NCBI GenBank assembly: GCA_021162805.1
Contig: JAGGXZ010000185.1
Span: forward strand, 3,064-67,063
Direction: 5' to 3'
DNA length: 64,000 bases
Source of the DNA: Candidatus Poribacteria bacterium
GTDB taxonomy: Bacteria > Poribacteria > WGA-4E > B28-G17
Position 1 is the first letter of the stretch, and each line of letters starts with the position of its first letter. Position numbers and translations under genes: made by a program. Below the pieces are notes generated by a model. It was not told the origin of the DNA and did not search any database. It saw only the letters and a program-made list of their open reading frames with translations. Below, piece by piece: positions 5,394-58,732 of this stretch.

Positions 5394-6758
5394 GTGATCA
5401 ACATAAGCGGGGTCATCTCCCCGCTCTCAGTCAAGGCCGATCTGCTGCCCGCCCGAAGCGAATGCGGAATAGGGGCTCTCATGCCATGGGCCGGCAGGCT
5501 CTGGATGATTACGTACGTCTCACACAAATCAAGCAGCGGTTCCGGAACGGGACTTTATGAGATAGACGAGAGCTTCACCCTGAGAAAGCGACCTGAAAGC
5601 GTGGTCGGCACCTACGCCAACCGCATGATCCATCCCCAATCCAGCCAACTTATAATCGGACCACACATCATAGATGTCGACGGCAACGTCCGAACGATCG
5701 AAGATATCAAGGAACACCGCCTCACGGCGACCATGGAGCATCTGGAAGATCCGGAGAACAAAGTCTACTTCCTGACGATGGAAGGGCTGATGTTGGAGGT
5801 CGATCTAAACACGCTGCGGGCGAGGGAGCTCTTCGATCTGACGAAGGAACTTGAGATACCCGAAAATGCTAAGCCCCATTTTAAGGGAGGATACACGGGG
5901 AGCGGCAGGGTGGTCGTGGCCAATAACACATACGATGAGCCGGACTTCCTGGGCGAACGTGAGGCGGGACGTCTGGCGGAATGGGATGGTAAGGTGTGGA
6001 GGATCATCGAGAGAAAACCCTTCAACGAGGTAACGGGTCGGCGGAATATGGGTCAGGTGATCTTCGCCACGGGATGGGACAAAGCGTCGGCTATCCTGAA
6101 GGTCTTCGCAAAAGGGAGGTGGCAAACCTATCGTCTGCCGAAGGCCAGCCATTGTTTCGACCATTACTGGCAGACCGAGTGGCCGCGGATTCGGGAGGTC
6201 GAAAGCGAGAGATATCTGATGGATTGTCACGGCATGTTCTACGAGCTCTCCCCCGTGGCGTATGACGGTAAGATATGGGGGATTAGACCCATTTCGACCC
6301 ATCTGCGTATCATCCCGGATTTCTGCTCGTGGAGGGGATTCCTTGTGTTGGGCGGAAACCAGGTAACCCCCATCGGAGACGCCAATCTCCTGGCGGGCGA
6401 GCCTCAGGCCAATCTCTGGTTCGGTAAGACCGACGATCTGTGGCAGTTCGGAAAACCTAAAGGCTGGGGAGGGGTGTGGTGGCAGGATCAAGTATCAGCT
6501 TGGGAACCGTCCGATCCATATCTGATGATGGGATTCGAGGGAAAGGTGTTACATCTGTGGCACGATAACGATCGTCCCGTGGAGTTCACCGTGGAGGTTG
6601 ATCCGCTGGGGAATCAGAGCTGGAAGGTTTACGATGTGTTCCGCGTTCCGCCCGGTGGATACCTACACCATGAGCTTCCGATGGGTTTCAGCGCCCATTG
6701 GGTGAGAGTCAGAACGGATACCACCTGTAAAGCCACGGCTTATTTCATTTACACGTAA
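5394..6758 (+). CDS. Hypothetical protein (454 aa), no recognised family by eye
   Basis: Long uninterrupted ORF with GTG start; Trp-rich; codon usage consistent with neighbours. Confidence 0.45.
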   Translation: MINISGVISPLSVKADLLPARSECGIGALMPWAGRLWMITYVSHKSSSGSGTGLYEIDESFTLRKRPESVVGTYANRMIHPQSSQLIIGPHIIDVDGNVRTIEDIKEHRLTATMEHLEDPENKVYFLTMEGLMLEVDLNTLRARELFDLTKELEIPENAKPHFKGGYTGSGRVVVANNTYDEPDFLGEREAGRLAEWDGKVWRIIERKPFNEVTGRRNMGQVIFATGWDKASAILKVFAKGRWQTYRLPKASHCFDHYWQTEWPRIREVESERYLMDCHGMFYELSPVAYDGKIWGIRPISTHLRIIPDFCSWRGFLVLGGNQVTPIGDANLLAGEPQANLWFGKTDDLWQFGKPKGWGGVWWQDQVSAWEPSDPYLMMGFEGKVLHLWHDNDRPVEFTVEVDPLGNQSWKVYDVFRVPPGGYLHHELPMGFSAHWVRVRTDTTCKATAYFIYT

Positions 6759-7935: not shown

Positions 7936-9405
7936 ATGTCTCAACCAAATGTTCTTCTCATATTCACCGATCAACAACGGGCCGATACCATTCAAGCGGC
8001 TGGAAATCCGATCATAAAGACGCCCCACCTGGATCGTCTGGTCGCCGAAGGGGTGCTTTTCAAAAGCGCCTACACCCCATCGCCCGTATGTGTGTCGGCC
8101 CGATGTTCGCTTATTTACGGCCTCTATCCCCATAACACGGGGTGTTTCGACAACGGTTATCCGATGCCCGATGATAGACCCAGCCTGATGGAGTTGCTCT
8201 CCAGGGCGGGCTATCGGACGCACGGCATCGGCAAGATGCACTTCACACCCGATTCCCACGCCTTACGCGGGTTTCAAACGCGCGAGCATCAGGAGGAGAT
8301 GCGTGCTCGGGTTGAGGATGACGATTACCTGAAGTTCCTCCACGCGAACGGCTTCGATCACGTATACGATCCCTTCGGCCAGAGGGGTGAGATGTACTAC
8401 ATCCCTCAGCCGGCACAGATGCCGGCAAGGCTTCACGGCACCAATTGGGTCGGCGATAGAGCCGTGGAGTTCATCCGCAATGCGGATAGATCCCGACCCT
8501 TCTTCCTCTGGGCGAGCTTCATTCACCCCCATCCACCCTTCTCGCCTCCGACTCCCTGGAACAAGCTGTATCGGGCAGCGCTGATGCCGCTGCCAAAGCG
8601 TCCCGACGGCTTTGAGACGCTTCACACCTACATGAATAGATACCAAAATCGGTACAAATACCGCGATAACGGGATAGATAACAACCTCCTCAGGGTGATG
8701 AAGGCCTACTACTACGCCTGTATCTCCTTCATCGATTTCCAGATAGGAAGGATACTTGAGGCTTTGGAGGAGACAGACCGGCTTGAGAACACCATGATCA
8801 TCTTCACATCGGATCACGGCGAGTTTCTGGGCGATTACAACTGCTTCGGCAAGCGGAGCATGCTAGACGCGGCGGCAAGGGTGCCGATGATCGTTCGATA
8901 TCCGGAGCGGTTCGCCCGAGGATACATCTGCGAAACGCCGACAAGCTTGGTTGATATCATGCCGACCATACTGGCCGCAGCGGGAATAGATCCTAAGGAT
9001 CATAACCTCGACGGGGTGGATCTGGCCGAGGCCGTAGGATACGATGACAGGACGATCTACAGCCAGTACCAGCGGGGCCCCCTAGGCGTCTACATGATCC
9101 TGAACCGACGATGGAAGTACTTCTACTCCGCTCCCGATCGAAGGGAGTTCCTCTTCGATAGAATACACGACCCGGAGGAGACCAGGAACAGGGCGGGGCT
9201 CAGCCTATGTAGGCGGGAGCAGGAGGAGATGAGAGGGGAATTGATCGGATTTTATAAGGAGCAGGGTTATACCGAACCCATAGAGGGCGATCGGTGGAAG
9301 CTGTTCCCACAGCCATCCATACCGGTAAACCCGGACGCCGGGCTTCTAATTCAAGACCCCGGATGGTCGCTGCGATATCAGAGGATACCGGGGTATACGG
9401 ACTAA
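7936..9405 (+). CDS. Sulfatase-family protein (non-canonical active-site motif C-V-S-A-R)
   Basis: LLIFTDQQRADT N-terminus, sulfatase fold hallmarks; motif PVCVSARCSLIYGLYPHNTG aligns to the C-x-P-x-R FGly site but lacks Pro. Confidence 0.7.
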   Translation: MSQPNVLLIFTDQQRADTIQAAGNPIIKTPHLDRLVAEGVLFKSAYTPSPVCVSARCSLIYGLYPHNTGCFDNGYPMPDDRPSLMELLSRAGYRTHGIGKMHFTPDSHALRGFQTREHQEEMRARVEDDDYLKFLHANGFDHVYDPFGQRGEMYYIPQPAQMPARLHGTNWVGDRAVEFIRNADRSRPFFLWASFIHPHPPFSPPTPWNKLYRAALMPLPKRPDGFETLHTYMNRYQNRYKYRDNGIDNNLLRVMKAYYYACISFIDFQIGRILEALEETDRLENTMIIFTSDHGEFLGDYNCFGKRSMLDAAARVPMIVRYPERFARGYICETPTSLVDIMPTILAAAGIDPKDHNLDGVDLAEAVGYDDRTIYSQYQRGPLGVYMILNRRWKYFYSAPDRREFLFDRIHDPEETRNRAGLSLCRREQEEMRGELIGFYKEQGYTEPIEGDRWKLFPQPSIPVNPDAGLLIQDPGWSLRYQRIPGYTD

Positions 9406-16429: not shown

Positions 16430-17590
16430 TCATCTATATCTCTCTATGGTCTCGAGCATCGCCTCTATGTTTTGTGGAGGCGTTCCCGGCATGATATAAT
16501 TCGAGACTCCGACTATCACCCTCCCATATCTTTGGGCGACATCAATGCAGGATAGAACCTCCTCGATGACCTGTTCTTTCGTTCCCCTATGCAGGGTGTG
16601 AGAGCTGATGTTGCCGATTAACGTGAGATCGGGGAACTCCTCCCTGAGCTTTTTCAGATCCATCCCCGCCCTACGATCTATCTCGTAATATCCGTCCACC
16701 CCCGACTCTCCGAACAGATCGTGGGCGACAGGCCATAGGTTCCCATCGCTCGCGAAAAGGTAGTACATTCCGAGCCTATGACACTCCTCAGTTATCCTCC
16801 TGAGGGCGGGCAGCATGATGTCATGAAAGACCTTCGGGGAGTAGAGGGGACCTTCGTTTGAAGCGAAATCCCCCCCGCCGAAGATCAATTTGACTCCCGA
16901 TGCGGCCAGCCGCGGCAACTGTCTCACCGCCCTTTCCGCCTGGACCTCGACGTACCGTTTGACCAGATCCGGCCTCAGAGCCACCGCCTCAAGCCAGATC
17001 TGATCATGCGGGATGCTTGCGCCTACGCCCCAGTTCCTGATGGCGTAATCTCCGTATCTGGCAAGCGTGGCCTGGATGGCGGGATCGGGACCTTCGGGCG
17101 GATGATATTCCTCTAACTCCCTCTCCTTCGAGGAGACGAACGCCTCCAGATCTCCCTCCGACATTCCCCTGACGGGGGATTCAACGATAGATTCCTTATA
17201 TCCCTCGATCCTGTGGAAGAGCTCGGTCTTCGGATCGAACTCCAATACATACCAGCTCCCCTCGAGATCTCCGAAGAGAAAGGTGTGCTCGTCGATCCTC
17301 CTGGTTGGCTTGATCCTCCATCTCCAGTATTGAAGCCGTATCATGTCGTGACCACACGCCAGTGCCACCTCCACGGCGTCCCTTTCGGATCTCTCCAGAA
17401 ACTCCCTATGGGCCTCGGGACCCTCCCACAGGGCCTTCATCTCGCGCCATTGCTGTATCTGTCCCCCCACGTAGGCCTCCCTGCCGAGGATCACCGAGGC
17501 AGCATATCCGGAAAATCCGATGTGATGGACGGGGACCCTGTCGGTGGATCTACCCTCAAAGGTGGCCAGTATCCTCTCCCTTGGCTTCAT
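16430..17590 (-). CDS. Uroporphyrinogen-decarboxylase (URO-D)-family protein
   Basis: TIM-barrel URO-D/MtaA-like composition; start set at ATG overlapping upstream sulfatase stop (ATGA). Confidence 0.45.
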   Translation of the reverse strand: MKPRERILATFEGRSTDRVPVHHIGFSGYAASVILGREAYVGGQIQQWREMKALWEGPEAHREFLERSERDAVEVALACGHDMIRLQYWRWRIKPTRRIDEHTFLFGDLEGSWYVLEFDPKTELFHRIEGYKESIVESPVRGMSEGDLEAFVSSKERELEEYHPPEGPDPAIQATLARYGDYAIRNWGVGASIPHDQIWLEAVALRPDLVKRYVEVQAERAVRQLPRLAASGVKLIFGGGDFASNEGPLYSPKVFHDIMLPALRRITEECHRLGMYYLFASDGNLWPVAHDLFGESGVDGYYEIDRRAGMDLKKLREEFPDLTLIGNISSHTLHRGTKEQVIEEVLSCIDVAQRYGRVIVGVSNYIMPGTPPQNIEAMLETIERYR

Positions 17591-18999
17591 CGCATCTCTC
17601 CCACCGAGGCGTCGAACACCTTCCAGAAGCTCTGTCCCTGTTCCCGCGTATCCCCGTAATCCTCCAGCCATCCCCTTCTCAGTTCCCTTCGGAGGCGTAC
17701 GAGGGTCTCAGCGTATCGGGGATCATCAGCCAAGTTCGTTGTCTCGCGCGGGTCGTTCGCGAGATCGAAGAGCTGAGTTTTGACGTGCACGCCACCAACG
17801 ACATATTCGATCAGCTTATACCGCCGATCTCGGACGCCGCGGTGTAGCCCCTCATAGGCGAAGTGCAGGTATTGGCGGATCGGCTCGGAGGGATTTTTAA
17901 GGGCCGGTACGAGGCTTTTACCCTCGACGGTGTCGGGTATCTCGATCCCCAGAAGATCGCATAGGGTCGGGAAGATATCCAGCAGATAGGCGAAAGCCTC
18001 CCGTCTCTCATTCTGGGGTATGCCCGGCCCGGTGAAGATCAAGGGGACGTGAACGCTGTGGTCGTAGACGCTTTGTTTGCCCATCAGCCCGTGTTGTCCG
18101 ACGGCCAATCCGTTATCGCCGGAGAAGAGGATTATGGTGTTCTCCAGCAGACCTAATTCTTCAAGTTTATCGATCACGCGTCCGATGGCGTCATCCAGGT
18201 GGCTGATCATGGCGTAGTATTCGGCGATATGACGGCGGATCTCCCTCTCGGTTCTTGGGAATCCGGCGAGCAGCTCATCACGCCCCCTCAGCCAGCCGTT
18301 ATCGAAAGGATGTTCGGGCATGAAGTTTTCGGGAAGCTTTATCGCTTCGGGATCATACATCCTCAAAAATCTTTCGGGCATGCTGCGCGGGTCATGTGGT
18401 GCCATGAACGAGAGGTAAGCGAAGAAGGGCCTATCGCCCTCATACCTCTCCAGAAAGTCGATGGTCGCATCGGCAAACAGATCGGAGGAGTGTTTGCCCG
18501 CTTTGATGTGATCGCAGAGCCACCACGTGACCTTGTTGCTCCTTGCGGGGTTTTCGATCTTCGGCTTAGGCTTATATTCGCCCGTCGGGTCGTAATCACA
18601 GGCGGGCACGTTCCAGTGATCGGACATCCCGCCGAAGAAGATCTCAGCACCGGCGTTGAAGCTCCGGGCATATGATCGCGTGCCGTTATGCCATTTGCCG
18701 GTGCCGAACGAGATATAACCTTCTCTCTGCAGGAGCTCGCCCAGAAGGATATGCTCTTCGGGGATGTTCTGTCCCTGCCGTTCGATGTGATAAAGCGTGC
18801 GGCCTGTGTGCAACATGGCGCGGCTGGGCATGCATACCGCACCGCAGGAGCCGCCCATGATATAGGCGTTGGTGAAGACCGTGCCCCGTTCAACCAGCCG
18901 ATCGAGGTTGGGTGTGAGGATCTCAGGGTTGTTGAGGGCATGGATCGTATCGAAGCGCTGATCATCGGCGAAGAAGAAAACGATATTAGGCCTGTCCAT
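17587..18999 (-). CDS. Arylsulfatase-family protein with canonical C-M-P-S-R formylglycine motif
   Basis: IVFFFADDQRFD, GGSCGAVCMPSRAMLHTGR; RBS GGGAGG before chosen ATG. Confidence 0.8.
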   Translation of the reverse strand: MDRPNIVFFFADDQRFDTIHALNNPEILTPNLDRLVERGTVFTNAYIMGGSCGAVCMPSRAMLHTGRTLYHIERQGQNIPEEHILLGELLQREGYISFGTGKWHNGTRSYARSFNAGAEIFFGGMSDHWNVPACDYDPTGEYKPKPKIENPARSNKVTWWLCDHIKAGKHSSDLFADATIDFLERYEGDRPFFAYLSFMAPHDPRSMPERFLRMYDPEAIKLPENFMPEHPFDNGWLRGRDELLAGFPRTEREIRRHIAEYYAMISHLDDAIGRVIDKLEELGLLENTIILFSGDNGLAVGQHGLMGKQSVYDHSVHVPLIFTGPGIPQNERREAFAYLLDIFPTLCDLLGIEIPDTVEGKSLVPALKNPSEPIRQYLHFAYEGLHRGVRDRRYKLIEYVVGGVHVKTQLFDLANDPRETTNLADDPRYAETLVRLRRELRRGWLEDYGDTREQGQSFWKVFDASVGEMR

Positions 19000-20368
19000 G
19001 AGAGACCTCCCTGTAACACCTTCGCAGCGCCTCAAGCGCCCCTTCGATCATCACTCGATCCGACTCCGGAGCGATGAAGATCCCGTATCGGCTCGCCCGG
19101 GCCATCTCCACTTCATATCCACCCAACGGCACCTGATCGGCGGTCGGGACGTAACCTATGGCACCGTTGGCGTGGCTGACCGGTATGGTCACTTTGAAGG
19201 GCGATTCCTCGGCGACTTTCAGGCCGATGTTGACGAATATCTCGCCTGGAAGGCCGACGATGGCGTAATCGCCTATGGCTATCGCCTGTGTCTCGACGGG
19301 GATGGTGAAATCGGCCTTCCCCGCCTCAAGATCCCTGACCAGTTTCTCCGTCCCCCTCAGCATCCTTGCTGTAAACCAGCTAAGGGCATCTTTCTCGTCC
19401 ACCGGTTTGCCTCCAGCAGCCTTACGCGCCCTTGCTATCTCCTCCTCGGCTCTGGCTCTTATCCGTTTCAGCTTCTCCCTTGCCTCCTCAAGCGATGGTT
19501 TCTCACCCAGATCGAGGGCGAACTCATAGCGAGCGACCGCTATACGCAGATCCTCCTCCATCTCATCGATACCCATCGCTGCCTGAAGGACGGCACAGCC
19601 CAGGCGGATGCCATGTCTCTCACAGAGCTCGAAATTTCCCCGTGGATGTGGGTTTACGTCCGCGCTACATGCGGCCACGAACAGGGCGAGTGCGTTTGAA
19701 AGGTTGGATTCTATGAACCGTTTGGCGACACCGGGGTAGTCGGCCGTATAGTATAGGTTATCGCCGCCGAGCGTCGTGCCGTGGGCGGCGTAGCTGAAGA
19801 GAAGCGCCATCGTCTTCCCGCTTTCGATCTCATCGAAACGGATGACGTCAGTGTAGGGAGCTATCGGACCGGAGGGGTTAACGCCGAGCACGGTTCTACC
19901 ATCGGGCCTCCGTTCACGTCTGTTAAGCGCTATGAGACAGTCCTGCCTGCCATATCCCACCCTTACGGGTTTCGCCCTGAGTTTCGCCTCCGACAGAGCG
20001 CCCGCCATCTTATGGATCAGCACGGTAGAATATGCTCGTTTCAGTTCATCCTCATCCTCCCTCCTCCTGAGCGACGTTTGGGGGCCGCCGTGCGTGTGAG
20101 AGCATGCGACGAGGATATTTCCCGCCGGCACGCCACAGATGGATTCGCAGGCCTCCCTTATCAGAGCCGTCCCCTGGACGTCGATGCCTATCAGATCGGC
20201 GGTTATCAATCCCGCCTCCGTCTCACCGTCGCTCAGGTAGAGCGCCACGGCGTTAAGCTCATCATGCACCCCTATGGCGGGGGTCTTCCGGGCGGCATAG
20301 CCCGACATCAACATGCCGACGGGCGGAGTTATATTCGCCCGCGCGGCACCGACGATCAGCTCAGACAT
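18986..20368 (-). CDS. Neutral/alkaline ceramidase-like protein
   Basis: N-terminus ANITPPVGMLMSGYAARKTPAIGVHDELNAVALYL matches neutral ceramidase N-terminal domain. Confidence 0.5.
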   Translation of the reverse strand: MSELIVGAARANITPPVGMLMSGYAARKTPAIGVHDELNAVALYLSDGETEAGLITADLIGIDVQGTALIREACESICGVPAGNILVACSHTHGGPQTSLRRREDEDELKRAYSTVLIHKMAGALSEAKLRAKPVRVGYGRQDCLIALNRRERRPDGRTVLGVNPSGPIAPYTDVIRFDEIESGKTMALLFSYAAHGTTLGGDNLYYTADYPGVAKRFIESNLSNALALFVAACSADVNPHPRGNFELCERHGIRLGCAVLQAAMGIDEMEEDLRIAVARYEFALDLGEKPSLEEAREKLKRIRARAEEEIARARKAAGGKPVDEKDALSWFTARMLRGTEKLVRDLEAGKADFTIPVETQAIAIGDYAIVGLPGEIFVNIGLKVAEESPFKVTIPVSHANGAIGYVPTADQVPLGGYEVEMARASRYGIFIAPESDRVMIEGALEALRRCYREVSHGQA

Positions 20369-21728: not shown

Positions 21729-21850
21729 GCGGTGTACCCCCTCCGAGTTCACCTCGATTTTATCAGCTTTCCCGGATGCTGTCAAGAAGGGATTCTCTCT
21801 TGACAATATCTGGGCTGCTATGGTATCGTTAAACCGAGGTTGAGCTACCC

Positions 21851-22210
21851 ATGAGATCGATCGCTTTCTATATCCTCATGCTCTCCTCGATCCTCATGCT
21901 AACCGGATGTGGAACTAGGAAGGACTTGATCGAGGAGTATAACGACTTTGCTATTTGCGCTGCGAAGGCAGGGCTGTGGAAGGAAGCGGCCTTCAGATGG
22001 GAGAAGATCGTCCAGATGAATCCCAAAGATGCCAGAGCCCACAACAACCTTGCCGTTGCCTATGAAGCTATGGGGAAATACGATGAAGCCGAAAGGGAAT
22101 ACCGAAAAGCCCTGCAGCTCGATCCCAGAAACAAGGCTATTCAACGGAATTATATCAGATTCAAACAAATCCAGCAGAGACGTAAGGGGAGAGATGAAGG
22201 GGAAGGTTAG
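21851..22210 (+). CDS. TPR-repeat lipoprotein
   Basis: Lipobox LTGC after signal peptide; AHNNLAVAYEAMGKYDEAEREYRKALQLDP TPR units. Confidence 0.55.
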   Translation: MRSIAFYILMLSSILMLTGCGTRKDLIEEYNDFAICAAKAGLWKEAAFRWEKIVQMNPKDARAHNNLAVAYEAMGKYDEAEREYRKALQLDPRNKAIQRNYIRFKQIQQRRKGRDEGEG

Positions 22211-22889
22211 TCTCGCCGTCATACTCATCCTGATCTTAGGCTGTGGAGGCCCTGAGAAGATATGGATCAAGGTGAATACCCCCTCAAAGATCGATATAAG
22301 CCGTTACCATTCCATAGCCGTCCTGCCCCTTCTGCCCCTGAAGAAGGATGATAGAAACGGGGATCAGGGCGAATCGATCTCGTATTTCATCAGGAGGGAG
22401 ATCGCCAAGGTGAAAGGGATTAACCTGATCGATGCCCAGACCACAAGGCGGATATTGGAAGGGGAGAAGATATCAATCCAAACGCTCGAAAGCCCAGAAC
22501 AGATGGTGGATATATGTGGGGAATTGGGGGTGGACGCCGTCATAGCGGGGACATATAAGCTGTATCATGTCAGCGAACCGAGGAGATATTACGTTGAGAG
22601 GTATTCGCCTCAACTGAGGCAGTATGTGACCCAGGCGGTCACATATTATGAGAAGACCTATTATCTCAAGCTCCATCTGATGTTGATCGACTCCAAGACA
22701 GGCAAGCCGATTCTCGATGAGGAGTATGAGCCATCCTACTCTGAGGCACATAACATCGGATCGCTGATCGTCTCGGAAGTTGCTCAGGATAATCCCGCCC
22801 TGGAGAGGCTCACCCTGGATGCGATATCGCAGTTTCTCAAGAAGATAGCGCCACACTATGAGAGAGAGGAGAGGTATCTGCTGAGATGA
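22194..22889 (+). CDS. Hypothetical lipoprotein
   Basis: MKGKVSLAVILILILGCGG lipobox; internal ATG of longer ORF; stop overlaps next start (ATGA). Confidence 0.45.
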   Translation: MKGKVSLAVILILILGCGGPEKIWIKVNTPSKIDISRYHSIAVLPLLPLKKDDRNGDQGESISYFIRREIAKVKGINLIDAQTTRRILEGEKISIQTLESPEQMVDICGELGVDAVIAGTYKLYHVSEPRRYYVERYSPQLRQYVTQAVTYYEKTYYLKLHLMLIDSKTGKPILDEEYEPSYSEAHNIGSLIVSEVAQDNPALERLTLDAISQFLKKIAPHYEREERYLLR

Positions 22890-25765
22890 AACCGAGATAC
22901 ACCATAGGTATACCATTCGTTATCCTGATGATCCTGGTCGGCTTCACGCCTCTATGGGCCACTCCGCCTCTGTTACAGAATCACCTCTCCTGGGCCACAT
23001 CATCATACTCCCAGTTCTTCGGCAAGAACAAGGTGACTGAGAAGAGGTTCAAATGGATGCTCCACAAGACGGATCATTTTGACATATACTATTACCCTAC
23101 AGAGGCTGCCTTGGTGCCGGAGGTTGGGAGGATAATAGAGGAGGCGTATCAGCGGCTGAGCGATGCGCTTGATCACGAGATAGAGGGCCGCACGCCCATA
23201 ATCCTATACAAGTCCCACAATGACTTTCGACAGACGAACGTCACGCTTGCGGATCTGACGGAGGGGGTTGGTGGATTTGCGGAGATATTCAAGCACAGGG
23301 TCGTCATACCGTTTACCGGCTCGCGCAGGGAGCTGAGAGAGGTTCTATTTCACGAGCTGACGCACATATTCCAATATGACATCATCTATCACAAGCCTCT
23401 AGCGCATATCTACACCGGTGAGTTTCTCTACAGTCCGCCGCTATGGTTCATCGAGGGGATGGCAGAGTATTTCGCACAGGATATGGACTCCGTTGGGGAG
23501 ATGGTTTTAAGGAACGCCGTTGTGACGAACGAGCTCGTGCCGTTGACGAAGCTGCAGGATTTTTCAGCCTTGGGCTCACAGGTCTATCTGGGATACAAGG
23601 AGGGGCAATCTGCGCTGATGTTTCTCGCCCGGAAATACGGGGAGGATAAGATCGGCTCCATCCTTCAGGAGCTGAGACATAGCCGGACGAAGAACCTGGA
23701 TGAGGCGATGAAGAACGTGTTGGGCATATCAGAGGAGGAGTTTGATAAGGGATGGCGAAGGGAGTTGAGGAAACGATATTATCCCCTGGTGGGTGAGAGG
23801 GATATGCCGGATGTGTTTTCAAAGCAGCTGACACATTCCGATGAGGGGGGCTATCTCAAATTCGCATGGTCGCCGAGCGGGGATCTTCTGGCGTGTATCA
23901 CGACAGAAGGGGGTCATTATGATATCAGCCTCATCACCTCCACAGACGGCAGAGAGGTGATGAGACCGATCACACATCTCTACAGGAGTCAATACGAGGA
24001 GATACAGATCAGAGGCAACGGGATAGCATGGTCACCGGATGGGGATAAGCTGGCCTTTTTCGCTCGGAAGGAGGGAGGGGAGGTTCTCTTCATCTACAAC
24101 CTGATAACGAAGGATTTGAGGAAGATCTCGATGCCCTTCGATTCTTGTTGGTCGCCGGAGTGGTCTCCGGAGGGAGGGAGGATCGCTTTTGTGGGGTTGA
24201 AGGATGGGCAATCGGATATCTATCTTCTCTCGCTCAGGCGGCTTCAGGTTGGGAAGGTTAGCATCAGCAGGGTTACGCGGGATATATACGACGAGGGAGG
24301 GATCACATGGAATCCGAGAGATGAGAAGCTGGCCTATTCATCGGAGAGGGGAGGATGGCGACGGATAGTGGTGCGGGATCTGATAAGCGGCGAGGAGAGG
24401 GTATTGACGGGATGGGGATTCAACAGTATCTCTCCGAGGTGGACTCCCGACGGTAAGGGTCTTCTCTTCGTTTCAGACATGACGGGTTTCAATGACATCT
24501 ATCGTATGGAGGTCGGCAAGGGGGAGGTGGTCAGATTGGTCGGGGCTATAACGGGTTGTTTTTCCCCTGCCCTATCACCGGATGGGAAGGCTCTTGCTTA
24601 CGTGGGGTATCACGACGGCAGGCAGGATATATACAGGGTGGAAGTATCCTCGTTAACACCCGAGACGGTGAGCTTTCCGGTTGCCAAATCGGGAGGGGAG
24701 GAGAGAGAGGGGAGAGGTGAAGAGGGGATAGTCGGCAGGAGGCGGTATAGGCCGAAGCTGATGTTGGATGCGATATTCACCGACTTCACGATGTATTCGG
24801 ATGGGATATTGAGGAACACGACGCAGCTTGTAGCGAGCGATATGATGGGGAATCATCGTGTGATGCTGACGTTGATGGGACAGAGCGGGTATTTCGCTCC
24901 GGATTTCGTCGCCTACTACTATTACCTCGGGTTGAGACCGGATTTCGGGGTGGGACTGTATAATTACCACACGGTACATCTGGTGAGGGGAATATGGGGA
25001 GATGAATGGTATCTTGAACGCAATACAGGAGCAGCGGCTCTGATGAGCTATCCGTTTGACAGGTACAGGCGGTTGGAGGTTCAACTGGAGATGATCTCCA
25101 TGCCGTTCAGGTATGATTTCTGGACATCAAAGCCGCTTGATAGAGGTAATATCACCTATCTGAGTGCGTATCTGATAGGGGACACGGTGAGTTGGAGCGA
25201 GATGGGGCCGAGGGGTGGGAGCAGGTATGCGATAGGGATTGAGAGGACATTGGGGTGTCTAGGGAGTGATTTAGAAATGACCAATTACAGCTTTGATATC
25301 AGGCGCTATCAAGGTGTGGGGAGAGGTGTATTGGCGTTTCGAGGTATGGGAGCAGCTAGCGAGGGTAGGGATAATATGATATACTATCTCGGAGGTATAG
25401 ATACGCTGAGAGGTTATGGATATGAGGATTTGAGAGGATCGCGGATGATGTTGATGAATGTGGAGTTGAGGGTGCCGCTGATAGAGGAGATCCGGTTTGG
25501 GTGGCCTGTGAGTTGGAGTATAGGTGGTATAAAGGGGATAGGTTTCATGGATATGGGAGCGGCATGGTACAGGGGAGAGAGGCCGAGATTGTGGAAGATA
25601 GAGGGGAGGAAGTTGGAGCTGGTCGATTTGGCCTCGTCTGTGGGATTAGGATTGAGGATGAATTTGGGGATATTTGCATTGAATATGGATTTGGCCTGGA
25701 GGACGAATTTGGTTCATATCGGGCCCGGTCCGATCTTCCACTTCGGCCTGGGAGGAGAATTCTGA
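22886..25765 (+). CDS. Large secreted/outer-membrane tripartite protein: gluzincin-like HExxH...E domain + TolB-like PD40 beta-propeller + Omp85/surface-antigen-like C-terminal barrel
   Basis: Signal peptide; FHELTHIF...IEGMAEYF; repeated WSPDG/WSPEG/WTPDG/LSPDG PD40 motifs; C-terminal GGIDTLRGYGYEDLRGSRMMLMNVELRVPL barrel region. Confidence 0.6.
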   Translation: MKPRYTIGIPFVILMILVGFTPLWATPPLLQNHLSWATSSYSQFFGKNKVTEKRFKWMLHKTDHFDIYYYPTEAALVPEVGRIIEEAYQRLSDALDHEIEGRTPIILYKSHNDFRQTNVTLADLTEGVGGFAEIFKHRVVIPFTGSRRELREVLFHELTHIFQYDIIYHKPLAHIYTGEFLYSPPLWFIEGMAEYFAQDMDSVGEMVLRNAVVTNELVPLTKLQDFSALGSQVYLGYKEGQSALMFLARKYGEDKIGSILQELRHSRTKNLDEAMKNVLGISEEEFDKGWRRELRKRYYPLVGERDMPDVFSKQLTHSDEGGYLKFAWSPSGDLLACITTEGGHYDISLITSTDGREVMRPITHLYRSQYEEIQIRGNGIAWSPDGDKLAFFARKEGGEVLFIYNLITKDLRKISMPFDSCWSPEWSPEGGRIAFVGLKDGQSDIYLLSLRRLQVGKVSISRVTRDIYDEGGITWNPRDEKLAYSSERGGWRRIVVRDLISGEERVLTGWGFNSISPRWTPDGKGLLFVSDMTGFNDIYRMEVGKGEVVRLVGAITGCFSPALSPDGKALAYVGYHDGRQDIYRVEVSSLTPETVSFPVAKSGGEEREGRGEEGIVGRRRYRPKLMLDAIFTDFTMYSDGILRNTTQLVASDMMGNHRVMLTLMGQSGYFAPDFVAYYYYLGLRPDFGVGLYNYHTVHLVRGIWGDEWYLERNTGAAALMSYPFDRYRRLEVQLEMISMPFRYDFWTSKPLDRGNITYLSAYLIGDTVSWSEMGPRGGSRYAIGIERTLGCLGSDLEMTNYSFDIRRYQGVGRGVLAFRGMGAASEGRDNMIYYLGGIDTLRGYGYEDLRGSRMMLMNVELRVPLIEEIRFGWPVSWSIGGIKGIGFMDMGAAWYRGERPRLWKIEGRKLELVDLASSVGLGLRMNLGIFALNMDLAWRTNLVHIGPGPIFHFGLGGEF

Positions 25766-25785: not shown

Positions 25786-25819
25786 GTGTAGCAGAGAGCT
25801 GAATGGATAACCGCTACAC
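25786..25819. repeat. Miniature copy of intergenic repeat (GTGTAGCAGAGAGCTGAATGGATAACCGCTACAC)
   Basis: Carries both termini (GTGTAGC...GCTACAC) of the larger repeats at 40642 and 56185. Confidence 0.4.
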
Positions 25820-25844
25820 TGAGAATTTGAGTGAACCCAATTCC

Positions 25845-28814
25845 ATGGAGGAGATAAGGATGAAGGGACCTTTGAGGAAGCTTGTCGCTATCATTCTTAT
25901 ACTGATAGCGGTTTGGATACTGGGTAGGTTGATCGTATCGGTCTATCCGGAGTATCTGTGGTTCAAACATCTAAACTATGCCTCCGTCTTCACGAAGATA
26001 TTCTGGACGAAGGTGGCGATGGGGGTTACGGCGACGGTGTTGCTCTTGGGGTTAACCCTGGGCAACCTCTATCTGATATGGCGTTTCTCCAGCGCTTTGA
26101 GCCCGGCGATAATCGACGCGATGCCGTTGGGGAGGCCCGATTTCGACTTACGTAAGTACATCTTCGTCGCTTTAGGTATACTTTCGATCTTCTTCAGTCT
26201 GATCCTCGGGTATTCGACAGCGTCACATTGGGAGGTGGTTCTGAGATACTTCAATTCCGATGGGATAAAGTTCAATCTGATCGATCCGATATTTCACAAG
26301 GACGCCGGGTTTTACATCTTCAAGATGCCTTTCCTGCGATATATATATGGGTGGATCTTCGGGATCTTTCTCCTCATAACCATAGCCACAGTTGCCGTCT
26401 ATTTCTTCCACGGTCAGATCCTGGATAGGCGTAACCGGTTCGCCCCGCCTTTCAGGGTCAAAGCTCACGTCTTCACTCTGATGGCCATAACCCTTTTCAG
26501 CAGAGCATGGGGTTACAGGTTTTTGATGTATGACCTGCTCTATTCGACCAGGGGCAGGGTTTTCGGAGCGGGATATGCGGACGTGTATGCCAGAAAACCG
26601 GTGCTTTGGATATTGATGTTCCTGTGCATAGCGGCCGGATTCGTTTTTCTCATCAGCATTTTCATGCGCCGAACGAGATACGCCGTGGGATCGCTGGTGT
26701 TGATATTCATCGTCGCCTTCCTAGGCGGTATATGGCCTGCGACGGTGCAGAAGTTCAAAGTGAAACCCAATGAGCTCAATCTCGAAAGGCCGTTTATAGG
26801 ATATAACATCAAATTCACCCGATACGCATACAACCTGGATAGGATCGAGGAGAAGGAGTACCCGGTCATCGGCCGGCTCACCTACGATGTGGTCACGAGC
26901 GATAAGGCGTTTATGGAGAACGTGAGGTTGTGGGATTGGCGGCCGCTGAAGCAGATATTCAAACAGCTTCAGGTTCTCAGACCTCAATACGATTTTTCGG
27001 ATGTGGATATCGATAGATACAGGATAAACGGAAGGCTGAGACAGGTAATGCTCGCCGCCAGGGAGCTGAATTACAATCAGCTCAGGGCTGAGGCTAAGAC
27101 CTGGGTTAACCAGACCTTCACCTTCACCCACGGTTACGGCATCTGTGTCGTGCCCGTCAGCGAGATCCTAAACGGTCGTCCCCGCTTCTACGTCAAGGAC
27201 ATACCGCTGAACTATGCCCCTGAATGGCCGGAGAGGATAAAGGAGAACCCCGGTCCCAGAATATATTACGGCGAGATGACGAATCACTATGTGATCGTCA
27301 ATCCTCAAAGCGCCGAGCCGCGGGAATTCGATTATCCGATGGAGGAATCAGAAAGCTACGTCAAAAATAGCTATCAGGGCAAAGGCGGGGTTCCCTTCTC
27401 CTCCCTAATCCGTAAGCTGATATTCGCCTGGAAGTTCAAAAGCATCAACATGCTCCTTTCAGGCGAGATAAGCCGGAACAGCCGGATACTGTTCCACAGA
27501 AACATCCAGGATAGGATCTCTACGATCGCCCCGTTCTTGAGGTTCGATCAGGATCCCTACATCGTTATGGCAAACGGAAGGCTCTATTGGATAATAGACG
27601 CCTACACGGTCACGCATCGTTTCCCTTACTCTGAGCCGATGGAGGATGTGTTCAAGGAGATGGTCAGGTCGAAGTTCGGCCGCAAGACAGCGAGGAGAGT
27701 GCTGAGGACAAGAGGAGAACCATGGGGCAATTACATCCGTAATTCCGTCAAGATCGTGGTGGACGCCTATGACGGAAACGTCGATTTCTACGTGGTGGAT
27801 GAGGCGAACGATCCGATGATCCAGTGCTACATGAAGATGTTTCCCGATATGTTCAAGCCGTTTGAAAGCATGCCGCAGGAGCTCAAGGCTCACGCGAGGT
27901 ATCCGATGGCGTTATTTTTGATCCAGGCCCTCAAATACAGATCCTATCATATGACCACGCCCGACGTCTTCTATGCTCGTGAGGACCTGTGGGAGATAGG
28001 ATATGAGATATACGACAATACGGCCATCCAAGGCGAGCAACAACCCCAAGTATCGCCGCTTTCAAGACTTACCGGAGTAAGACCACAACAGACGGGTAAA
28101 AGCAACATCCAGCCGGTGGAGCCGTACTACCTCATAGTCACCCTGCCCGATGAGAAGAAAAGCGAATTCCTGATCATGATCCCCTATACGCCGGCCGGCA
28201 AAGCCAATTTGACCGCCTGGCTGGCCGCCAGATGCGACATACCGGACTACGGAAGGCTACTGGTCTATAAATTCCCAAAGGGTCAGCTCGTCAACGGCCC
28301 GATGCAGGTCGAAAGCTTTATAAGTCAGAATCCAGAGATCTCCAAGGACCTATCATTGTGGGATATGCGGGGGTCGAGGGTGTTGCGTGGAAACCTGCTG
28401 ATCATCCCTATGAGCGGCTCAGTCCTCTACGTCGAGCCGATATATATCCAGGCGGAACAATCGGAGAACGCCATACCTGAGCTCAGCCGCGTGGTCGTGG
28501 GGTATAAGCAGAGCGAGAAGATGAGCGTAGTGATGGGGATGACGCTAGAGGACGCTCTGAGAAGGATGTTCATAGGAGGAGCGATCTCAGCGGCTCCCTC
28601 CCCGGCCGGGGTGACAAAGGTCAACGCCAAACCGAAGCGGCGTCCTGCCGTCCAATCCGCAACTGCCGATCAGTTGATAAAGCTCGCAAAACAGCATTAT
28701 GATATGGCCCAACGGGCGATCAAACGAGGAGATTGGGCCGAATACGGAGATCAGATCAAAAAGCTCGGCGAGGTGCTATCACAGCTTGAGTTGATCTCAG
28801 GAGGTGGAAGATGA
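25845..28814 (+). CDS. UPF0182-family large membrane protein
   Basis: N-terminal multi-TM region with PEYLWFKHLNY motif, about 1000 aa; start set after the repeat element rather than at MDNRYT. Confidence 0.6.
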   Translation: MEEIRMKGPLRKLVAIILILIAVWILGRLIVSVYPEYLWFKHLNYASVFTKIFWTKVAMGVTATVLLLGLTLGNLYLIWRFSSALSPAIIDAMPLGRPDFDLRKYIFVALGILSIFFSLILGYSTASHWEVVLRYFNSDGIKFNLIDPIFHKDAGFYIFKMPFLRYIYGWIFGIFLLITIATVAVYFFHGQILDRRNRFAPPFRVKAHVFTLMAITLFSRAWGYRFLMYDLLYSTRGRVFGAGYADVYARKPVLWILMFLCIAAGFVFLISIFMRRTRYAVGSLVLIFIVAFLGGIWPATVQKFKVKPNELNLERPFIGYNIKFTRYAYNLDRIEEKEYPVIGRLTYDVVTSDKAFMENVRLWDWRPLKQIFKQLQVLRPQYDFSDVDIDRYRINGRLRQVMLAARELNYNQLRAEAKTWVNQTFTFTHGYGICVVPVSEILNGRPRFYVKDIPLNYAPEWPERIKENPGPRIYYGEMTNHYVIVNPQSAEPREFDYPMEESESYVKNSYQGKGGVPFSSLIRKLIFAWKFKSINMLLSGEISRNSRILFHRNIQDRISTIAPFLRFDQDPYIVMANGRLYWIIDAYTVTHRFPYSEPMEDVFKEMVRSKFGRKTARRVLRTRGEPWGNYIRNSVKIVVDAYDGNVDFYVVDEANDPMIQCYMKMFPDMFKPFESMPQELKAHARYPMALFLIQALKYRSYHMTTPDVFYAREDLWEIGYEIYDNTAIQGEQQPQVSPLSRLTGVRPQQTGKSNIQPVEPYYLIVTLPDEKKSEFLIMIPYTPAGKANLTAWLAARCDIPDYGRLLVYKFPKGQLVNGPMQVESFISQNPEISKDLSLWDMRGSRVLRGNLLIIPMSGSVLYVEPIYIQAEQSENAIPELSRVVVGYKQSEKMSVVMGMTLEDALRRMFIGGAISAAPSPAGVTKVNAKPKRRPAVQSATADQLIKLAKQHYDMAQRAIKRGDWAEYGDQIKKLGEVLSQLELISGGGR

Positions 28815-29368
28815 GTATAAATAGGGATGAAGCGATGAAGCTGCTCAGGGAGTATACCAAAAACGAGAACCTAATCAAACATGCCCTAGCCGTCGAGGCT
28901 GCCATGAGGGCTTACGCCAGGAGATTCGGCGAGGACGAGGAGAGGTGGGGGATAGCGGGATTACTGCATGATTTCGATTACGAGAGGTATCCAACCCCGG
29001 GCGAACATGCCATCAAAGGTGCCGAGATCCTCGCCGAGAGGGGATATCCCGAGGACATCGTAAACGCCGTGAGATCCCACGCCAATTATGAGGAGTATCC
29101 GCCTCAGACCTTAATGGAGAGAACCCTTTTCGCCGTAGACGAGCTGACCGGTTTCATAGTTGCTGTGGCCCTCGTCAGACCTTCCAAGAAAATAGCGGAT
29201 GTCAAGGTCAGCTCGGTCAGGAAGAAGATGAAGGATAAGGCTTTCGCCAGAAAGGTGAAGAGGGAGGATATAATCAAGGGGGCGGAGATGCTCGGCGTGC
29301 CGCTGGAGGAGCACATAGGGACGGTGCTTGAGGCGATGAAGGGGATAGCCGATCAGCTAGGGCTGTGA
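28811..29368 (+). CDS. HD-domain phosphohydrolase
   Basis: HALAVEAAMRAYA ... GLLHDFDY HD motif; ATGA overlap with upstream stop. Confidence 0.75.
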   Translation: MSINRDEAMKLLREYTKNENLIKHALAVEAAMRAYARRFGEDEERWGIAGLLHDFDYERYPTPGEHAIKGAEILAERGYPEDIVNAVRSHANYEEYPPQTLMERTLFAVDELTGFIVAVALVRPSKKIADVKVSSVRKKMKDKAFARKVKREDIIKGAEMLGVPLEEHIGTVLEAMKGIADQLGL

Positions 29369-29374
29369 ATCTCC

Positions 29375-29403
29375 TTGCCAATCAGGGAGGTATTTGTTAT
29401 ATT
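29375..29403 (+). promoter_or_regulatory. Putative sigma-70-type promoter TTGCCA-17-TATATT for the rpsB operon
   Basis: Read directly; about 145 bp upstream of rpsB ATG; leader also contains GGATAACCGCTA 12-mer. Confidence 0.35.
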
Positions 29404-39101: not shown

Positions 39102-40526
<1,425 letters not shown>

Positions 40527-54656: not shown

Positions 54657-56117
54657 GTGATGAGGATGAAAGCCCCAGCCCTGGGTTTGCTGATCCTATT
54701 GTTAGCCGTTTCGATCTCACAGGCGGACTGGTCGATCGGTTATGAATTCAGATATGACTATGACGATGTGTATTCGAACATGATCGGCCGCGAGCACCGG
54801 GACGGCGCGGAAGTAGATGACTGGATAGAACGCGGCAGTGCAACCATAACGGCAAGTCCCATCTTCCCCGATGGCGTCAGGCTTACGGGATGGTCGACCG
54901 ATTTCGAGACGGAAGGGGAAGGAGATTTCGACTTCAGCCTCGCAAGCGCAATCTACTACTTCCACATCCCGCGTGGAACCCAATATATAAAGATCAAGGT
55001 CTACTATCGAGGTGAAGGAGGAAGGGTTGAATTCGACGGCACAGATGAGATCGCCGGAAGAGTCTGGATCAGAAACTACGAGCGGGAGAGGCTCAGGCGA
55101 AAATATGAGGAGGATGACACGCTATATGGCGATACCTTTCTCCTGAGAGCCAACAGACGATCCGAAACGATAAGGATACCGGCAGCCGAACATGTGAACG
55201 ATGGCGTGATGGAGATGCATATAGTGGTGGATGATGGGATGATGCTGGACGTAGACTATATCGTCGTCGAATCCTATAGATGGCTGCCGGAGGTTAAGGT
55301 GATCAACAGATACTACAGGGTTTATGAGTGGAAACCGTGGTATTACTACACTTACATTTACTTCTACGATGGCCCTTGCTACTATCTGACCGACTACGGA
55401 TACTACATCAGATGGATATATCCGGCGTATGACAGGTTCTACCTCAGCATCAGATTCAGATATGGAGATTACCTGCGCAGATACTACGCTATGTATCCTA
55501 GATATTACTGGTATCGTAGATGGAGCGAGATATATTACGACGATCCAAAAGCGCGGGTCAGAATTCACGCCGGAGGGGTCAGGGCTAGGATCAGACCATG
55601 GACGCCGGAGGACGAGAGGATAAGAAAGGAGTACATAATCGTCAGAAGATCCCCCGATAGGGAGAGAAACAGGATAGCTGAGGTGCGAAACAGGATAAGG
55701 GAGACGATAACGCGCTATAGAATCCGTGAAGGACAAAGCTCAGCAAGTCGCACGCGGATAAGAACCACACATCCCACCGATTCACGGTATCGGACCAGGA
55801 CATCGATCAGGTGGTCCAGAACGACTCCCAGCACCACACATATAATCGTCCCCAGAACTGAAGTTAGAATAAGAAGCCGCTCTCAGGAGAGCAGATCCTC
55901 ACCTCCTTCATCCGCCCGTACTCGAAGCTCATCGATCCGATCCCGCATATCAACACGGAGAAGCGAACCGCCCAGAAACTCTCGATCTCAGGCAAGCAGC
56001 AGCCGTAACAGGGAGGAAGAGGAAAAGAAAAAAGATGAGGACGAGGATAAAGATAAGGATAAAAAGGATGAGGGAAGCTCAAGGCGGGATAGGATCAGAT
56101 CGAGAATAAGGAGGTGA
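54657..56117 (+). CDS. Secreted protein with globular N-terminal half and extreme low-complexity C-terminal half (Tyr/Arg/Trp-rich, then Arg/Ser/Thr-rich, then Lys/Asp/Glu-rich)
   Basis: Signal peptide MMRMKAPALGLLILLLAVSISQA; RBS gggaggtga; WKPWYYYTYIYFYDGPCYYLTDYGYYIRW..., ...RSRSQESRSSPPSSARTRSSSIRSRISTRRS..., EEEEKKKDEDEDKDKDKKDE. Confidence 0.45.
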   Translation: MMRMKAPALGLLILLLAVSISQADWSIGYEFRYDYDDVYSNMIGREHRDGAEVDDWIERGSATITASPIFPDGVRLTGWSTDFETEGEGDFDFSLASAIYYFHIPRGTQYIKIKVYYRGEGGRVEFDGTDEIAGRVWIRNYERERLRRKYEEDDTLYGDTFLLRANRRSETIRIPAAEHVNDGVMEMHIVVDDGMMLDVDYIVVESYRWLPEVKVINRYYRVYEWKPWYYYTYIYFYDGPCYYLTDYGYYIRWIYPAYDRFYLSIRFRYGDYLRRYYAMYPRYYWYRRWSEIYYDDPKARVRIHAGGVRARIRPWTPEDERIRKEYIIVRRSPDRERNRIAEVRNRIRETITRYRIREGQSSASRTRIRTTHPTDSRYRTRTSIRWSRTTPSTTHIIVPRTEVRIRSRSQESRSSPPSSARTRSSSIRSRISTRRSEPPRNSRSQASSSRNREEEEKKKDEDEDKDKDKKDEGSSRRDRIRSRIRR

Positions 56118-58599: not shown

Positions 58600-58732
58600 A
58601 CTATCTCCTCCAGATGGATTGAGTTCGAAGTGATAAACGTCCCTTACCCCTCTCCAGGTTACCGTAGAGGAGGTGTGCAAAGATTTGCATACTGCGTCGT
58701 TATTCTCTAGTGAGAACATCACGGAGCTTAAA

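Follow-up and report, generated by a model that had tools for sequence, protein, structure and literature searches.

What does a bacterium gain from carrying a zinc peptidase, a TolB-like propeller and an Omp85-type outer-membrane barrel on a single polypeptide, and has such a protein been seen before? The question is raised by a gene in a 64,000-nucleotide stretch of DNA from a Candidatus Poribacteria bacterium (assembly GCA_021162805.1, contig JAGGXZ010000185.1, positions 3,064 to 67,063 of the forward strand), which was analysed as a whole and is called the window below. The open reading frame (ORF) at 22886..25765 on the plus strand encodes 959 amino acids (aa) from ATG to stop, its translation is free of internal stops, and the opposite strand is full of them. 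The original prediction, made from the sequence without database searches, had described a fusion of a metalloprotease, a TolB-like PD40 propeller and an Omp85-like barrel, had been unable to place that architecture, and had suggested an outer-membrane-anchored, self-inserting protease. Our analysis indicates that the fusion is real and belongs to a subfamily that has already been named, and we favour for it a role as a periplasmic metallopeptidase that is tethered to the outer membrane. The parts of the gene to which the following paragraphs refer are these:

22886..25765, plus strand: the whole gene, peptidase plus propeller plus Omp85 barrel, 959 aa plus stop (from the ORF listing, translation, Pfam and full-length homologues)
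22886..22960, plus strand: signal-peptide-like N-terminus, aa 1-25, MKPRYTIGIPFVILMILVGFTPLWA, with no lipobox
23018..23035, plus strand: FGKNKV motif, at or near the mature N-terminus
23018..23821, plus strand: gluzincin-type zinc metallopeptidase head, aa 45-312
23351..23365, plus strand: HELTH, the HExxH zinc-binding and catalytic motif, aa 156-160
23453..23470, plus strand: EGMAEY, aa 190-195, with E190 as candidate third zinc ligand
23822..24673, plus strand: six-bladed TolB/PD40-type beta-propeller, aa 313-596
24674..24757, plus strand: charged linker with a low-confidence core, aa 597-624, ...KSGGEEREGRGEEGIVGRRRYRPK
24758..25762, plus strand: 16-strand Omp85-type outer-membrane beta-barrel, aa 625-959
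25406..25417, plus strand: LRGY, the Omp85 loop-6 (V/I)RG(Y/F) motif, aa 841-844
25544..25558, plus strand: FMDMG, the Omp85 strand-13 (F/G)xDxG motif, aa 887-891

The three domains named in the original prediction all exceed the curated cut-offs of Pfam (Peptidase_MA_2, PD40 and Omp85), AlphaFold2 (AF2) gives the same three parts in one chain, and Foldseek has matches for the propeller and the barrel. Each of the peptides that had been quoted in its support is present in the translation, namely HELTH (156-160), EGMAEY (190-195), WSPDGDKLAFF (382-392), WSPEGGRIAFVG (426-437), WTPDGKGLLFVSD (519-531), LSPDGKALAYVG (563-574) and GGIDTLRGYGY... (836-865). The matches to NCBIfam are partial and sub-threshold, to TolB (the propeller part), to Omp85_fam and to the C-terminus of BamA, so that the protein is orthologous to none of them.

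The architecture can nevertheless be placed, contrary to what had been claimed. Ten subfamilies of the Omp85/TpsB superfamily have been defined, including one called 'WD40-like' (Heinz and Lithgow 2014, Front Microbiol 5:370; PMC4104836). The Pfam profiles given for this subfamily are PF01103 with one to five PF07676 repeats (PMC4104836, Table S2). Its approximately 95 UniProt members, which include D0MEQ5, Q11Q40 and C1A6X2, are reported with Phyre2 hits of the barrel to BamA 4k3b or TamA 4c00, with TolB hits to 2w8b or 2ivz, and with a 'best aminopeptidase hit' to 1z5h, 4kxd, 3qnf or 4fgm or to the collagenases 4ar1 and 4ar9 (PMC4104836, Table S3). The authors likened the architecture to a fusion of BamA and BamB, without experiment (PMC4104836), and a 2024 paper states that one Omp85 subfamily has 'divergent WD40 and peptidase domains'. 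The WD40-like subfamily is not covered in a paper on the outer-membrane proteome of Myxococcus. Both features of the subfamily are present in the Poribacteria protein, which has an Omp85 barrel preceded by a PD40/TolB-like propeller and a gluzincin domain N-terminal to that propeller. It is a WD40-like Omp85 protein that is new from Poribacteria rather than a new architecture. We assign it to the subfamily because the architecture is identical and because full-length homologues link the phyla in one continuous family.

Conservation within the family was read from an alignment of 75 sequences that spans multiple phyla at 29% mean column identity and was assembled from a representative search and a profile search. 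The signal-peptide-like N-terminus is recognised from the sequence and from an AF2 helix of low predicted local distance difference test (pLDDT) score at residues 10-18, and its cleavage site is putative. The FGKNKV motif follows, in which F45, G46 and N48 are invariant. The median position of this FG(K)N(K) motif among the 75 members, that is, across the whole family, is 29, and about 19 extra residues stand before it in the Poribacteria copy.

The head matches Peptidase_MA_2 (PF13485; gluzincins, clan MA(E)) at aa 155-294 with 49.0 bits against a cut-off of 32.4. When 19 family members were scanned, Peptidase_MA_2 was found in all of them, Peptidase_M9 in 10 and M48 in a single member, where the match is marginal. 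A head profile built from these 19 members matches the Vibrio M9 collagenase 7esi over the W..EG.AEY segment (E=0.002), and a PDB sequence search with the head alone returned no match. The HExxH motif occurs once in the protein against 0.03 occurrences expected from composition, lies on an AF2 helix (147-168), and has H156, E157 and H160 invariant across the 75 sequences from several phyla. Downstream, W187, E190 and G191 are likewise invariant on a second helix (186-197), and the spacing from the second histidine to the glutamate is 30 residues in 70 of the 75 members. A conserved GGF(A/T)E lies approximately 25 residues upstream of HExxH in the family, the GxMEN exopeptidase motif is absent, and the AF2 fold of the head is mixed alpha/beta followed by a helical part. 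The Pfam match, the invariance and the helices all agree with the earlier reading of HELTH and EGMAEY as HExxH...E zinc ligands, with zinc coordination itself a prediction.

The propeller is recognised by PD40 (PF07676) with 69.4 bits against a cut-off of 20.9, and TolB matches the same region both in a PDB sequence search (1.7e-17) and by Foldseek against the PDB (9e-11). Relatives carry precomputed matches to Tricorn_N and Tricorn_2nd. In the AF2 model, six four-stranded blades occupy aa 323-595 with pLDDT means of 68-96 in blocks of 10 residues, most of them high. The PD40/TolB propeller of the original prediction therefore stands with six blades in place of 'at least five'. Its proposal that the propeller takes the place of POTRA domains also agrees with the data, because POTRA (PF07244) was not detected in the 959-aa protein by Pfam and the propeller is followed by a linker of only 28 residues, with pLDDT below 50 at 602-616, before the barrel begins.

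Omp85 (PF01103) matches aa 773-959 with 52.8 bits against a cut-off of 24, over profile positions 130-325, which are the C-terminal 60% of the model. AF2 builds 16 long strands between aa 626 and 955, and strands 11 and 12 are connected by a long loop (827-852). For this part of the protein, Foldseek against the PDB retrieves TamA 4c00 (6.9e-9), P. aeruginosa TamA 8us2_B (TMt 0.51) and the BamA barrel 7nre_A (TMt 0.63). The barrel had been assigned to the C-terminal 250 aa or so. It is confirmed as a barrel, and its length is about 335 aa (625-959). By phmmer, the barrel aligns with BamA 9ccg of F. nucleatum, and the alignment takes in LRGY, F.D.G.AW and the Phe at the end of the chain. LRGY lies in the long loop, is aligned to the LRGY of 9ccg, and has an invariant R842 and a nearly invariant G843. 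FMDMG is aligned to FADAG of 9ccg, with F887 and D889 invariant and G891 nearly so. In 73 of the 75 members the chain ends in F, Y or W. A C-terminal aromatic beta-signal of this kind is what ordinary substrates of the machinery for beta-barrel assembly (BAM) carry. The 'self-inserting' part of the original prediction is without support. 'Outer-membrane-anchored protease' remains a fair description.

The zinc-site and barrel motifs are invariant or nearly so across a multi-phylum alignment, so that, on this sequence evidence, both the HExxH site and the Omp85 functional motifs are under purifying selection. Selection on the zinc site in turn speaks against a peptidase domain that has decayed or serves structure only. 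With the 75-sequence alignment as input, AF2 models the full chain at a mean pLDDT of 84 and a predicted template modelling (pTM) score of 0.81, a value which suggests a fixed geometry between head and barrel in the model. With only 37 close relatives as input the head had been modelled poorly (pLDDT 24-67), which is why distant members were collected for the deeper alignment, and with the latter the head is modelled confidently.

The family extends far beyond this genome. Nearly all of the best 120 clusters at 90% identity have the same three Pfam domains in a protein of approximately 930-1070 aa, and two truncated entries lack the barrel. In a library at 50% identity there are 1,469 representatives at E<=1e-30, and the best 150 (E<1e-98) are nearly all 880-1170 aa long, most of them aligned end to end. 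A relative is present in 440 species-representative genomes, complete chromosomes included, and the best 80 of these 440 are all Candidatus Poribacteria or metagenome-assembled genomes. Named relatives from the profile search come from candidate division TA06, Zixibacteria, Eisenbacteria and Nitrospirota. NCBI labels them variously as 'BamA/TamA family outer membrane protein', 'PD40 domain-containing protein' and 'peptidase MA family metallohydrolase'. As checks, the original prediction had named a Pfam domain scan, a structural test of the 16-strand barrel and the phylogenetic distribution of the architecture. The scan places all three domains above cut-off, AF2 gives 16 strands with TamA and BamA as Foldseek matches, and the architecture is found in several phyla. 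The architecture is thus real, ancient and very widespread, and it defines an uncharacterised subfamily among the ten of the Omp85/TpsB superfamily. The gene in the window is a conserved gene of the housekeeping type in its Poribacteria genome, where it is apparently single-copy. Given the invariant catalytic and barrel motifs and a confident full-length model, a clear experiment is feasible in culturable members.

With a probability of roughly 0.55, we propose that the protein is an outer-membrane-tethered periplasmic metallopeptidase for the quality control or turnover of envelope proteins. Nearly all of the uncertainty in this proposal sits in topology and substrate rather than in the identity of the protein. 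The chain would be exported by Sec and then inserted by the BAM machinery of the host like other barrels. The head and propeller would hang in the periplasm below the barrel, at the position that POTRA domains occupy in BamA and TamA. In Omp85 barrels strand 1 begins on the periplasmic side, where the N-terminus emerges, which argues for a periplasmic head. The same placement is favoured by the fact that TolB propellers are periplasmic, by the fixed dock that the pTM score suggests, and by the behaviour of the gene as a housekeeping gene. The position of the Poribacteria gene, flanked by lipoprotein genes and a gene for a membrane protein and with 4-nt overlaps, also suits a periplasmic housekeeping role. 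To our knowledge, all structurally known N-terminal domains of Omp85 proteins are periplasmic. The propeller might dock or gate substrates and let unfolded chains through, a part that PD40 propellers play in tricorn and S9 peptidases, and the zinc site would then cut the unfolded envelope proteins so admitted. Such a role would be comparable to that of BepA on BAM, but with the protease fused covalently to an Omp85 barrel.

Several points weigh against this proposal. The membrane side of the head is deduced, rather than read from the geometry of the model (the face of the barrel and the threading of the linker). The type Vd autotransporter PlpD shows that an enzyme placed in front of a barrel of the Omp85 type can be exported by that barrel. 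In the loci of other phyla that were compared, no gene for envelope stress or for BAM recurs as a neighbour across the family. Finally, no experimental or functional study of a WD40-like Omp85 member was found in the literature.

The PlpD analogy leads directly to the alternative that survives best, in which the protein would be a type V (Vd-like) autotransporter whose barrel exports the peptidase and propeller to the cell surface. There the enzyme would be displayed or released as a nutrient protease that attacks host or environmental proteins, such as a collagen-like matrix. The order of enzyme, linker and 16-strand Omp85 barrel parallels that of PlpD (PMC4104836), and the charged, low-confidence linker of approximately 28 residues could span the lumen of the barrel. 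In addition, the head is closest to M9 collagenases, the four cysteines of the protein are not obviously paired, and the Poribacteria genome is rich in sulfatases, which is consistent with matrix degradation. However, proteins of the PlpD type retain a POTRA domain that is absent here. A head of 550 residues with a closed propeller is also an unlikely passenger for a narrow lumen that is occupied by loop 6 and in which the lid-lock motifs are conserved. The pTM of 0.81 suggests a head that is docked rather than free, and the family is widespread in free-living phyla, among housekeeping genes, where a core envelope role fits better than niche nutrition. We therefore consider export of the head to the surface to be unlikely.

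In Poribacteria, the gene stands in a cluster whose other members are as follows, with conservation given for 86 loci that were compared:

21851..22210, plus strand: TPR lipoprotein, 119 aa, lipobox LTGC, the cluster's first gene; kept upstream in 79 of the 86 loci
22194..22889, plus strand: lipoprotein, 231 aa, lipobox ILGC, start at 22194; overlaps the start of the peptidase-barrel gene by 4 nucleotides (nt) and adjoins that gene in 77 of the 86 loci
25803..28814, plus strand: UPF0182 membrane protein (PF03699, E=1e-269), 37 nt downstream of the peptidase-barrel gene; on the same strand downstream in 79 of the 86 loci
28811..29368, plus strand: HD-domain protein, overlapping the UPF0182 gene by 4 nt; conservation limited to the closest relatives

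The order TPR lipoprotein, second lipoprotein, peptidase-barrel protein and UPF0182 protein is kept on one strand in 76 of the 86 loci, relatives that are 43-50% identical included (the same-strand cluster loci are L001, L004-L080 and L085). The gene is probably co-expressed with the two lipoprotein genes and the UPF0182 gene in this phylum. None of the five loci of other phyla in the 86-locus comparison has this order. The idea of a universal operon partner was rejected on the basis of six further loci from other phyla that lack the lipoproteins and UPF0182, and the upstream genes in a TA06 locus encode unrelated small membrane proteins. The cluster partners are thus lineage-specific, and no constant operon partner accompanies the family as a whole. 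Outside Poribacteria, the gene is found among housekeeping genes (aroA, dxr-rseP, obg). It follows aroA in three loci (L083, L087 and L089), and in one of the seven non-Poribacteria contexts (L086, 1-9060, a relative at 33% identity) it stands directly after pyrH-frr-uppS-cdsA-dxr-rseP.

The listed ORF for the second lipoprotein, 286 aa at 22029-22889, most likely starts too early, since the Met at 22194 gives the lipoprotein signal MKGKVSLAVILILILGC and homologues align from there. The resulting 231-aa gene overlaps the gene for the TPR lipoprotein. Its family has 92 proteins and no Pfam domain, and every named member is from Poribacteria. Three members are called 'TolB-like protein' by the Joint Genome Institute, and NCBI ENG04_00625 (Candidatus Poribacteria) is matched at 100% identity by one cluster. 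The copy in the window is itself 100% identical to an NCBI protein of a Candidatus Poribacteria metagenome-assembled genome, which places the window in that phylum. The TPR lipoprotein has a BamD match at 8e-6, which is weak and well below the cut-off. Both lipoproteins also show sub-threshold similarity to DUF6340, the 231-aa protein at model positions 80-203 (E=0.025) and the TPR lipoprotein at 217-257 (E=7e-5), and the two may be a split version of one DUF6340 family. A promoter-like site (21800-21829; TTGACA, a spacer of 18 nt, TATCGT) is located before the first gene and a terminator-like hairpin (29369-29391) after the HD gene. Their placement would fit a five-gene operon, but sites of this kind are no more frequent in the region than chance would give.

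These neighbours bear on a second alternative, in which the protein would be an assembly factor resembling BamA and BamB. The barrel would act as an insertase or translocase and the propeller as a BamB/TolB-like scaffold for partner proteins, the peptidase would be secondary or regulatory, and the protein might replace BamA in some lineages. A role of this kind was proposed by Heinz and Lithgow (PMC4104836). The conservation of the full set of Omp85 functional motifs is consistent with it, and the TPR lipoprotein with its weak BamD match and the second lipoprotein, both upstream in Poribacteria, recall the accessory lipoproteins of BAM. In many Gram-negative genomes bamA follows pyrH-frr-uppS-cdsA-dxr-rseP, and the gene in L086 fills the slot after rseP where bamA usually lies. 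This adjacency, however, occurs in a single one of the seven contexts from outside Poribacteria, the lipoprotein partners are found in Poribacteria only, and there is no POTRA domain. Moreover, the peptidase has kept its catalytic residues invariant from phylum to phylum, and proteolysis is therefore selected for rather than incidental. The genera that we take to be hosts of the 2014 members do not appear in the list of BamA-lacking species in PMC4104836, a point of little weight. In addition, the statement in that paper that BamA is ubiquitous in diderms suggests that the genomes of its WD40-like members are probably also represented in the BamA clusters. We regard a primary role in assembly as distinctly unlikely.

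Least credible is an artefact, either a chimeric assembly or separate genes for peptidase, TolB and Omp85 joined by read-through, for which only the unusual combination of domains speaks and which is ruled out by the same end-to-end architecture in the best 120 clusters at 90% identity, by the nearly uniform full length of the best 150 representatives at 50% identity from independent assemblies, by the 440 species genomes (complete chromosomes included), by invariant residues in all three domains, and by a single confident AF2 model that spans the whole chain.

A periplasmic peptidase tethered to the outer membrane thus remains our preferred explanation, and the cluster is the only new element that this window adds to the subfamily. 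A highly speculative extension, which we think is probably wrong, is that the protease-Omp85 protein, the two lipoproteins and UPF0182 together form a trans-envelope proteolytic or assembly module with the protease-Omp85 protein as its outer-membrane end. If such a module were to exist, it would provide the first functional context for UPF0182, a large inner-membrane family, and an example of an Omp85 paralogue with a BAM-like lipoprotein set of its own.

Other parts of the window deserve brief mention. No BamA was found in a scan of the ten largest other ORFs in the window. A periplasmic serine protease of the DegP/HtrA type (Trypsin_2 plus two PDZ domains) is encoded at 39102-40526 on the minus strand and represents another envelope quality-control protease. 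Two sulfatase genes and a neutral ceramidase-like gene are located nearby, at 7936-9405 (plus strand), 17587-19035 (minus strand) and 18986-20368 (minus strand), and are consistent with the polymer-degrading repertoire reported for Poribacteria. Two long ORFs, of 486 aa (54657-56117, plus strand) and 454 aa (5394-6758, plus strand), have no Pfam match at E<=1e-5, and a 768-aa protein at 56416-58722 on the minus strand consists almost entirely of TPR repeats.

Comparison with characterised systems clarifies what is shared and what is not. The protein resembles BamA and TamA in its 16-strand barrel, its loop-6 RGY and FxDxG motifs and its C-terminal aromatic residue, with Foldseek values of 7e-9 to 4e-8. 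It differs in lacking POTRA domains, the place of which is taken by the peptidase and propeller. Its NCBIfam scores are correspondingly low (BamA, 31 against a cut-off of 297; Omp85_fam, 40 against 200; TamL, far below cut-off). With TolB it has a six-bladed PD40 propeller in common, but the N-terminal alpha/beta domain of TolB is absent and TIGR02800 scores 129.9 bits against a cut-off of 343, with only the propeller aligned. Because the propeller is fused to a barrel and a peptidase and the TolB N-terminal domain is missing, the protein is not a TolB orthologue.

The catalytic head has the HExxH motif and the downstream Glu on a second helix in common with M9 collagenases and M1 aminopeptidases, to the catalytic domains of which it is closest, and its W..EG.AEY segment aligns to Vibrio collagenase. 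The score of 17.3 to 21.4 bits for the M9 collagenase profile (PF01752) lies below the gathering cut-off of 26, and the head is a relative within the clan rather than a member of the family. The activator and accessory domains of collagenases are absent, as is the GxMEN exopeptidase motif. BepA, an M48 zinc metallopeptidase whose TPR domain docks on BAM, provides a functional analogy only. Both proteins would combine an HExxH periplasmic protease and an interaction repeat domain with association to an Omp85 barrel, but the protein described here has an MA_2/M9-like peptidase in place of M48, a propeller in place of TPR, and a covalent link to the barrel in place of docking.

PlpD, as a type Vd autotransporter, likewise carries an enzyme domain N-terminal to a 16-strand Omp85-type barrel in one polypeptide. 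In PlpD the enzyme is a patatin lipase and a POTRA domain is retained (PMC4104836, Table S2), whereas the Poribacteria protein has a zinc peptidase and a propeller with no POTRA, and neither PF01734 nor PF07244, the type Vd features, was matched in it by Pfam. The closest counterpart is the WD40-like Omp85 subfamily itself, which has the same barrel, propeller and N-terminal gluzincin domain, also without POTRA, such that nothing in the architecture differs. What distinguishes the Poribacteria copy is that its phylum was apparently not in the 2014 set and that the gene stands in a lineage-specific cluster of its own.

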